Origin: a virus
DNA length: 32,962 nt
Virus record (IMG/VR): IMGVR_UViG_3300002301_000008
Span: 1 to 32,962 of that record
Direction: 5' to 3' (one strand)
Below the pieces are notes generated by a model. That model saw only the letters and a program-made list of their open reading frames with translations. It did no database searches and was not told the DNA's origin. Positions 5,074 to 6,737 of this stretch are shown one piece after another. The translations under genes were made by a program, and so were the position numbers. Position 1 is the first letter of the stretch. Every line of letters begins with the position of its first letter.

Positions 5074-5421
5074 ATGGCAAATGAACAAAATTTAAAGCCG
5101 TTCCCAAAAGGGAATAATGCAAATCCAAATGGTCGCCCAAAAGGAATCCCTAATAGCAAAACTCGTTTACTAAGATTATTAGAATTGGTACAAGTAAAGA
5201 CTAACCCAATTACAGGAGAGAAAGAGGAGTTTACTGTGGCAGAGCAATTAGATATGATGGTACTACAAAAGGCATTTAAGGGGGATTTAAGGGCTTATCA
5301 GGAGATACTTGATAGATTGGAAGGTAGAGCCAAACAAACCAATGAGATAGAACTATCAGGAGGACTTCAAGTAAATTGGGAGGAGAAAAAAACTTACGTT
5401 GAAAACAAAGGAAGCCTATAA
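5074..5421 (+). CDS. terS: Terminase small subunit (DUF5681-like, NPNGRPKG motif)
   Basis: The ORF track gives 115 aa. GNNANPNGRPKG is the motif common in small terminases, and the gene lies directly upstream of TerL. Confidence 0.6.
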   Translation: MANEQNLKPFPKGNNANPNGRPKGIPNSKTRLLRLLELVQVKTNPITGEKEEFTVAEQLDMMVLQKAFKGDLRAYQEILDRLEGRAKQTNEIELSGGLQVNWEEKKTYVENKGSL

Positions 5422-6737
5422 TGGAACTATCAATAAAACAAACTACTGCCCTTGACCTTCTTGAAGATACTCGCACAAACGAGGTTCTTTTCGGAGGCGG
5501 GGCAGGTTGAAGCGGAGGAAAAACGGCTTTAGGCTGCTATTGGCAACTTAAACAAAGATTAAAATATCCCAATACTAGAGGATTAATCGGCAGAGCAGTC
5601 TTAAAGACACTTAAAGAAACTACCTTAGTCTCCTTCTTCCAGATAGCCAAGATGCAAGGAGTAGAAGCCAACAAGCATTTTAAATTCAATGCTCAATCCT
5701 CTACCTTAGAATTTCCTAATGGTTCTACTATCCTACTTAAAGACCTTTACTCCTACCCTTCTGACCCCAACTTTGATGAATTAGGTTCATTAGAGATTAC
5801 AGATGCTTTTATAGATGAGGCAAACCAAGTAGATGACAAAGCCAGAAATATTATTAAATCAAGGATAAGATTTCAGTTGGACCAAAACGATTTAGTACCT
5901 AAGATTCTTTACACTTGTAACCCTGCAAAGAATTGGGCATACTCGGAGTTTTATAAGCCACAACAAGACGGAAGTATTGCCAATAATAAAAGATTTATTG
6001 CTTCGTTAATAGATGACAACCCTTACATATCTAAACACTACAAAGAAAACCTTTTAACTTTAGATAAGGTTAGCAAAGAAAGATTACTCTTTGGTAACTG
6101 GGAATATTCCTCTGACCCTGCACAATTAATAGACTATGAAAAAATACTTGATTCATTTACCAATGCTTTTGTGCCTAGCGGCAACCCTTATATTACTTGC
6201 GATGTGGCACGTTTTGGTTCTGATAGTACTGTTATTGGGATATGGAGTGGACTTCGTGTTAAACTATATCAATACAATGGTAAATCGGTTGTTGAAGTTG
6301 CTGAACTTATAAAGAACTTTGCATTAGAACATAAAGTACCTTATTCAAACATTGTGGTCGATGAAGATGGGGTAGGCGGTGGGGTAGTTGATATTCTTAG
6401 GTGTAAAGGATTTGTAAACAATAGCACTGCGTTAAAGAATCCAGTAAATCACGCTAAAGAAAACTTTGACAACCTTAAATCGCAATGTTATTACAAGTTA
6501 GCCGAATTAATAAACGATAGCAAAATATTTATCAATGCTGACGGGAAACAAAAGCAAATGATAATAGAGGAACTAGAACAAGTCAAACAAAAGAATGTTG
6601 ACAATGATTCAAGCAAAGGAATAATCCCAAAGGATAAAGTCAAAGCTGCAATAGGTCGTTCACCCGATTTTTCCGATTGTTTGGCTATGAGAATGTACTT
6701 TGAATATACTCCTAAATTTGTTGTAAGTGTTTTCTAA
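5421..6737 (+). CDS. terL: Terminase large subunit. The reading frame is interrupted by an in-frame TGA (5508..5510) inside the Walker-A loop.
   Basis: The frame from ATG 5421 reads ...VLFGGGAG*SGGKTALG.... Downstream are Walker B ITDAFIDEA, YTCNP, and the nuclease motifs CDVARFGSDS and VVDEDGVGGG. The ORF track only reports the part from Met 5652. Confidence 0.85.

Follow-up and report, generated by a model that had tools for sequence, protein, structure and literature searches.

The 32,962-nucleotide (nt) virus genome IMGVR_UViG_3300002301_000008, referred to below as the window (the whole stretch of DNA that was analysed), carries an in-frame TGA and an extra AGC triplet inside the Walker A loop of its large terminase gene, terL. 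Comparison with related phages suggests that TGA AGC is probably an insert that confers immunity to a homing endonuclease and is decoded by a short ribosomal hop. We also lean towards a wider reading, in which the window is one member of a family of very short bypass sites that occurs in nature, comprises a +1 shift, a 9-nt stop-hop and coding gaps of 5 and 7 nt, lies in the Walker A motif of an essential ATPase and derives from endonuclease immunity; frame-independent re-pairing of tRNA-Gly would let the gap drift in such sites and the landing triplet degenerate to AGC or TGC.

The small terminase gene terS (5074..5421; plus strand, as are the other features of this locus) encodes a DUF5681 protein (Pfam E 3e-12) and occupies the same place as terS of phage 11b. 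Its stop codon TAA (5419-5421) overlaps the terL start codon ATG (5421-5423) as TAATG. The frame opened by this ATG first runs through 29 codons (terL segment 1, 5421..5507; MELSIKQTTALDLLEDTRTNEVLFGGGAG), which comprise the beta-1 strand and the first half of Walker A and align as homologues of the N-termini of full-length TerLs. It then meets the TGA at 5508..5510, resumes as SGGKTALGCYW... and continues to the stop at 6735-6737, which makes it the frame of the open reading frame (ORF) 5652-6737. Segment 2 proper (5514..6737) begins GGKTALGCYW..., and Walker B (LEITDAFIDEA) and the nuclease part are in frame downstream of the TGA. The first in-frame ATG, GTG or TTG 3' of the TGA is at 5652. 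A previous reading of this DNA, made from its letters alone (the sequence-only reading), had described the same TAATG overlap, stop position and frame, had placed the Walker B and nuclease motifs in that frame and had reported no in-frame start codon between the TGA and 5652; re-reading the sequence, translating it and scanning its codons gave the same picture on each point. Pfam hits for the conceptual product are Terminase_3 (E 2e-10) and Terminase_6N (E 9.5e-5), and over residues 1-433 the product is 52% identical to TerL of Flavobacterium phage 11b, its best cultured relative. With terS upstream and the portal gene downstream, the domain matches, the Walker A and B motifs, the nuclease and the terS-portal setting identify the gene as that of the large terminase, TerL.

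The P-loop of this protein is of canonical length elsewhere. The TerLs of phages 11b, phi10:1, Versailles and P12002L, the four inspected, all align without a gap through [FY]GG[GA]AGGGK[ST], and against homologues the window has exactly six extra bases, TGA and AGC. The sequence-only reading had placed the TGA at a variable position of the P-loop; the alignment shows instead that TGA and AGC are two codons missing from all homologues. Closer relatives, with 84-98% amino-acid identity, were collected from IMG/VR, GTDB genomes and JGI metagenomes and yielded 147 distinct junction sequences. The canonical junction GCN GGN GGN GGN AAR, encoding FGGGAGGGKT, is found in 102 of them. The other 45 carry an insert at the same spot, of 1, 6, 8 or 10 nt, and fall into 23 junction types. 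A sense codon in sibling genomes had been put forward as a sign of trivial error; an insert is absent from many siblings but present in a quarter to a third of them, so that such a test is not simply applicable. No description of P-loop inserts in terL was found in the literature.

The junction types are uniform in design. With the gap in brackets, the commonest is GGT [TGA] GGC GGA GGA, and that of the window is GGT [TGA] AGC GGA GGA. Among the relatives there are also GGT [TGAAG] GGC GGT GGC, GGT [TGAAT] GGC or GGT, GGC [TGAAT] GGT GGA, GGC [TGATG] AGC GGG, GGC [TGAATAA] GGT GGT, GGT [TGAATAA] AGC or TGC, GGT [TGAAAAT] TGC, and GGC [TAACCAA] GGC or AGC, and one type has a single extra G (GGT GGG TAA G). 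All 22 types with inserts of 6-10 nt consist of a GGT or GGC codon, a TGA or TAA immediately after it, and an NGY triplet 0-4 nt later; this downstream triplet is GGY in 14 types, GGA in 1, AGC in 5 and TGC in 2. In every one of the 22, without exception, the triplet is so placed that a move of the Gly-tRNA to it restores FGGGAGGGKT exactly. In the 1-nt type, a +1 slip from GGG to GGT gives the canonical loop too, with TAA in the A site. Canonical genes use mostly GGT at the three Gly positions of the P-loop, so a GGY take-off codon is uninformative by itself.

We then considered selection on the two sides of the insert. Over the 28 codons upstream, ten insert-bearing lineages show 477 synonymous against 155 non-synonymous codon differences (summed over pairs), and the amino-acid changes are limited to a few variable positions. 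Downstream, the reading frame of 405-406 codons is intact in every complete insert-bearing locus except L214, and insert-bearing genes compared with one another have ratios of non-synonymous to synonymous substitution rates (dN/dS) of 0.03-0.10. Strong purifying selection acts on the coding sequence of both flanks, and both are translated. Since the two segments lie in different frames in the 1-, 8- and 10-nt types, a frame-restoring event is required there. In the exceptional locus, L214, a further stop interrupts the frame about 65 codons beyond the Lys codon of the P-loop; no other complete insert-bearing terL is so affected, and L214 may be a true pseudogene or an assembly error.

The inserts are associated with a homing endonuclease gene. 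In many insert-bearing loci terS and terL are separated by a gene of about 165 amino acids (aa); the copy in L018 (2270-2770) encodes 166 aa. Where the P-loop is canonical, the two terminase genes often share the TAATG overlap seen in the window, and in some cases a short spacer separates them. The intervening gene encodes HNH_3 and NUMOD4 domains and matches the homing endonuclease I-HmuI (PDB 1U3E, E 4.5e-12) as well as PHROG 59. Of the 45 insert-bearing sequences, 17 have it immediately before terL, as against none of the 102 canonical ones (Fisher p = 1.5e-10), and different insert types are accompanied by diverged HNH variants, at least three in number. When the region from terS to portal was compared among L018, L019, L024, L057, L221 and L237, the HNH gene was 97.6-100% identical and the first 100 nt of terL 94.5-100% identical, while terS, the body of terL and the portal gene were only 70-95% identical. 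Such an island of identity in otherwise diverged genomes indicates a recently mobile cassette that has spread horizontally. These relatives thus carry a free-standing endonuclease cassette beside an altered conserved gene. According to the proposed scheme, the endonuclease gene would insert between terS and terL, its product would presumably cut or nick the conserved P-loop-coding DNA of phages that lack the gene, and the inserts would have arisen in this phage family as protection against such an I-HmuI-like HNH enzyme. As a separate observation on the same intergenic region, the terS-terL spacer of L030 (approximately 2699-2769), and also those of L042 and L045, contains tandem 9-mers resembling TACTACGAA; this kind of spacer accompanies both insert-bearing and canonical P-loops.

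In the window itself, tblastn found no HNH homologue anywhere, and the terS-terL junction is of the endonuclease-free kind. Over positions 5421-5510 the window nevertheless shows no difference from the allele that L019 and L024 carry next to their HNH gene; A5511 (AGC versus GGC) is where the two first diverge. The window stays closest to this allele until about 5760, and upstream of the ATG it matches endonuclease-free genomes. The left boundary of this patch (5421..5760) falls exactly at the terL ATG, which is the insertion site of the HNH gene in L019 and L024. A donor-like 5' end of terL joined to an endonuclease-free terS side makes the window a recombinant, in which the protected target has been kept and the endonuclease is absent; its genome would have gained the protected 5' end of terL by recombination with a donor, without the endonuclease gene. 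A second, unrelated endonuclease polymorphism exists in the same phage: the 99.9% identical strain L241 has, at its positions 150-446, a 98-aa HNH/HNH_5 gene in the early region (corresponding to approximately 2221-3340 of the window), where the DNA of the window differs.

How could a stop in the middle of the P-loop be decoded? We propose that the ribosome pauses with peptidyl-tRNA-Gly on GGU 5505-5507 (Gly29, the candidate take-off codon immediately 5' of the stop), with the UGA of 5508-5510 filling the A site. The tRNA-Gly would then unpair and re-pair six nt downstream on AGC 5511-5513, the candidate landing triplet, which is GGC in the otherwise identical L019/L024 allele; codon positions 2 and 3 would match. 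Decoding would restart at GGA 5514 and yield the canonical loop FGGGAGGGKT, with a predicted TerL of 436 aa, as compared with 438 aa predicted for readthrough. The hop, its efficiency and the target of the endonuclease are inferred, the hop from the comparison of alleles.

Three properties of the sister alleles argue for such a hop over conventional recoding. First, inserts of 1, 8 and 10 nt shift the frame, and readthrough is therefore no rescue for them. Second, in four types (two types with GGC TGAATAA GGT, and GGT TGAATAA followed by AGC or TGC) the +1 frame that would be needed is closed by a TAA within the gap, so that frameshifting fails there and a jump over both stops is needed for TerL to be made; frameshifting is also disfavoured because its product adds two or three residues to a loop of invariant length in homologues. 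Third, in one lineage (N-terminal signature D[TS][RQ]TNE, context GGA GGC GGG GCN) the gap varies between 3, 5 and 7 nt, which indicates that codon-anticodon re-pairing, and not the frame, determines where the ribosome lands. Bypassing appears to be the only single mechanism that would cover all of the variants.

Several observations weigh against this interpretation. No adjacent HNH gene is seen in 28 of the 45 insert-bearing sequences, including the window, some of their contigs being too short upstream to tell. The landing triplet of the window is AGC and not a Gly codon, so that take-off and landing (GGT/AGC) match at two of three positions. Short stop-hops in synthetic Escherichia coli constructs have been described as low-efficiency events. 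Folding of seven junction regions, and then of 115 distinct junction sequences with shuffles, showed no stimulatory RNA structure conserved across insert types (mean z -1.08 for insert-bearing and -1.17 for canonical sequences), and no nascent-peptide signal was identified. Finally, the insert of the window is in frame, and UGA readthrough to GGGAG-X-S-GGKT could also give TerL here. On the question of the mismatch, six other types have AGC (four) or TGC (two) as the landing triplet, all of them frame-shifted, and in at least two of the AGC/TGC-landing types, L227 and L235, an intact HNH gene adjoins; a first-position mismatch at the landing triplet seems to be tolerated.

The window does have a predicted hairpin at 5502..5537, whose 5' arm holds Ala28, the take-off GGU, the UGA and the AGC, and whose 3' arm is GCU UUA GGC UGC (z -2.9 in a 91-nt fold; -18.0 kcal/mol and z -3.9 in a second fold). 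The change of G to A that turns GGC into AGC strengthens it. The same topology occurs in some group-1 relatives and is weak or absent in many others. A stem further 5' (5470-5501) is common only to sequences with ACT CGC codons, and neither a conserved take-off stem-loop nor a Shine-Dalgarno-like element was found.

If a near-cognate tRNA such as tRNA-Trp, or a suppressor of the host, read through the UGA, and AGC were read as Ser, a 438-aa TerL would result, possibly in lowered amount; we regard this as unlikely for the window. Besides the in-frame insert, readthrough has in its favour that A-G-x-S-G-G-K-T still fits [AG]xxxxGK[ST] and that a UGA with A as the next base is generally held to be leaky. 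The G-to-A change gives the window this UGA-A context, which 12 of the 23 types have. However, the two extra residues that readthrough would add are found in no homologue, close or distant, and sister alleles of the same lineage with 8- or 10-nt inserts are not rescuable in this way. The AGC, moreover, stands at the same position in the frame-shifted relatives L103/L186, L220, L227 and L235, where it is not readable as an in-frame Ser. The TGA codon also ends other genes of this genome, such as the ERF gene at 31240-31794, and the genome has no suppressor tRNA gene. The sequence-only reading had offered, as its first option, programmed readthrough or suppression that limits TerL dosage. The idea of recoding holds up in spirit. 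Readthrough as the mechanism is probably wrong, because the 8- and 10-nt inserts of relatives are not rescuable by it, and so probably is the purpose, since the linkage to an HNH homing endonuclease favours nuclease immunity over control of TerL dosage.

Two other forms of stop-codon redefinition were considered and rejected. Genome-wide reassignment of TGA does not agree with its use as a terminator in 7 of 55 listed ORFs of 60 aa or longer on the plus strand (the Pfam-supported ERF gene among them), with the presence of a single in-frame TGA inside a gene in the whole genome, or with the count of tRNA genes in the window, which is zero by ARAGORN. Selenocysteine insertion was rejected as no Rfam family matched in 5300-5800 at E values up to 1, and the frame-shifted sister alleles also speak against it; at gathering scores, no Rfam family matched in the whole window.

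A different kind of alternative is that the insert-bearing terL alleles are non-functional, either selfish conversion products or endonuclease scars, with TerL supplied in trans by co-infecting canonical phages, or parts of defective genomes. A stop in the Walker A loop would normally be inactivating, L214 has its second stop 65 codons downstream, and the kinds of samples that yield canonical relatives also yield insert-bearing ones. We nonetheless consider dead alleles improbable, given that, L214 excepted, the complete insert-bearing terL ORFs remain open past the insert for their 405-406 codons, that dN/dS among them is as low as stated above, and that the N-terminal segment is under purifying selection as well. 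The same architecture of stop plus landing triplet in every insert is also unlike what random lesions would produce. As for the window, its first 54 nt (1-54) are repeated exactly at 32909-32962, which indicates a circular assembly and a complete genome of about 32.9 kb, and its junction was recovered in identical form from several samples. The exact 361-aa ORF is present on 11 contigs in public assemblies, and the three contigs that were fetched (ENA ERZ19037015, ERZ19036974 and ERZ19025903), which come from different lake samples (SAMEA9560783, SAMEA9560782 and SAMEA9560521), all read GGT TGA AGC GGA GGA at the junction; in each of them the gene caller had called the 29-aa ORF. One of the three assemblies represents a variant strain with a different early region and four mismatches in 6.4 kb. 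These copies came from the exact-protein look-up in ENA assemblies only; no copy of the exact junction was found in IMG/VR or JGI metagenomes, megablast of window 5000-7000 found no match among GenBank phages, and among cultured phages tblastn returned TerLs at 52% identity or less only. The earlier suggestion of a nonsense lesion in a decaying genome is thus unlikely, in view of the complete circle, the intact downstream part of terL and the purifying selection on both sides.

It is very improbable that TerL is made as two chains, a 29-aa N-terminal peptide and a C-terminal protein re-initiated at or after the stop. There is a precedent in T4 gene 39/60 and Aeh1 nrdA, where endonuclease insertions yield two functional products, and the 8-nt variant GGT TGAAG GGC does have a stop-overlapping TTG in the downstream frame. 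The window, however, has no in-frame ATG, GTG or TTG before 5652, its TTG at 5507-5509 being out of frame; a TAA right before the first Gly codon blocks the downstream frame of the GGC TGAATAA GGT variants; and a P-loop cut mid-loop into two chains is structurally implausible. Re-initiation at a stop-overlapping TTG was rejected as a general mechanism, as it fits one 8-nt variant and neither the window nor the 10-nt variants.

That the TGA is a sequencing or assembly error can be practically dismissed: the region is G-rich and homopolymer frame breaks had been reported elsewhere in the genome, but three independent assemblies, one of them a strain variant, share the junction, the difference from canonical genes is a 6-nt insertion and not a substitution, and 31 contigs of IMG/VR and 23 from metagenomes bear related alleles with the TGA. 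The base-call error that the sequence-only reading had listed as its third option falls with these data, the more so as 44 other related sequences carry inserts at the same place, with TGA as the stop in most and TAA in three. The homopolymer frame breaks that it had reported in two small early genes could not be located on an ORF check. In the early region, the ORFs 571-1221 (216 aa) and 1142-1843 (233 aa) overlap by 80 nt in different frames, have no Pfam match and show no homopolymer at the overlap.

Should the proposed hop be correct, it would be the first natural stop-hop. It would also be the second independent case, after T4 gene 60, in which a homing endonuclease is coupled to ribosomal bypassing, and a second instance of the evolutionary route of that gene, along which an endonuclease forces a change in its conserved target and translation absorbs the damage. 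The 23 natural junction variants, which differ in gap (3, 5 or 7 nt, or a +1 type) and in landing triplet (GGY, GGA, AGC or TGC), would then constitute an allelic series on the requirements of hopping. There is a practical side as well: gene callers split such terminases into a 29-aa ORF and an ORF of 361-402 aa without Walker A, so that annotation and quality checks misjudge these genomes as defective.

Two further features of the window concern reading frames outside the terminase locus. The sequence GAGAAAAAAAAAGCC (A-run at approximately 14152-14166; region 14136-14483) lies in the overlap of ORF 13816-14178 and a -1 frame ORF, just upstream of a tape-measure-like ORF of 744 aa (14490-16724), and this overlap resembles the usual programmed frameshift of tail chaperones. 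A Pfam match to NinG covers profile positions 76-184 only, on a 123-aa ORF (4134-4505) that is preceded by a 67-aa ORF (3916-4119) in another frame. L007, L018 and L240-L242 share this arrangement of two ORFs, which is therefore conserved and not a one-off frame break.

Natural programmed bypassing is known from few systems, namely T4 gene 60 and its homologues, the byp elements of Magnusiomyces mitochondria and, as a candidate, Streptomyces phage Hau3. In T4 gene 60, the ribosome takes off from GGA before a UAG and lands on GGA across a 50-nt gap; the gap is linked to the HNH homing endonuclease MobA, has been associated with protection against self-cleavage, and is retained after loss of the endonuclease. 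The terL site resembles it in several respects. In both cases a conserved gene of essential function contains non-coding bases not found in its homologues; a Gly take-off codon is followed directly by a stop and then by a matching or near-matching Gly landing; the site is close to the N-terminus (codon 46 in gene 60, codon 29 in terL); and an HNH homing endonuclease gene is linked in relatives, in a cassette that moves between genomes. Gene 60 cassettes that have lost MobA show the same outcome as the window, with the insert kept and the endonuclease absent. The differences are equally clear. The affected gene is terL, in its Walker A motif, instead of a topoisomerase subunit gene; the phages are related to those of Flavobacterium and Cellulophaga; the gap spans 3-7 nt as opposed to 50 nt; the endonuclease gene does not split terL but sits upstream, between terS and terL; and the hop in terL is a proposed one. 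There is no sequence homology between the gene 60/MobA cassette and the terL insert, and the likeness is one of analogy and not of membership.

In-frame stop-hopping was described in a 2016 review of recoding as having no known natural occurrence. In the synthetic stop-hops of E. coli, matched codons surround a stop and nine nt are read as one amino acid; the commonest allele here, GGT TGA GGC, has exactly that architecture, and a single base separates the window from this allele (AGC). The synthetic sites are, however, engineered and of low efficiency, whereas the terL site is natural and conserved, lies in an essential gene and has out-of-frame variants.

The nearest case in the same gene is Streptomyces phage Hau3, for which bypassing of UUA-led 10-nt inserts in the terminase gene has been proposed. 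Both concern short, frame-disrupting inserts (7-10 nt) in the large terminase gene that are absent from homologues, with a slow-to-decode codon at the 5' end of the insert and junctions in highly conserved protein segments. In Hau3, however, it is not a stop that acts as the trigger but UUA, a sense codon that is rare and connected with the life cycle of Streptomyces, no link to a homing endonuclease has been proposed, only three genes are known, and the inserts occupy a different place in the protein. The byp elements of Magnusiomyces capitatus mitochondria are likewise many short inserts in essential genes that are removed at translation, with an undecodable codon in the A site, but they measure 27-55 nt, spread as GC-cluster-like elements in mitochondria and have no endonuclease linkage of the terL type. 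Finally, stop-codon reassignment, in phages and in genetic codes 4 and 25 (TGA as Trp or Gly), has in common with the window an in-frame TGA in a late gene. The window departs from it in that it contains only one such TGA, ends about six real genes with TGA, lacks a suppressor tRNA and has relatives whose inserts at the same site shift the reading frame.

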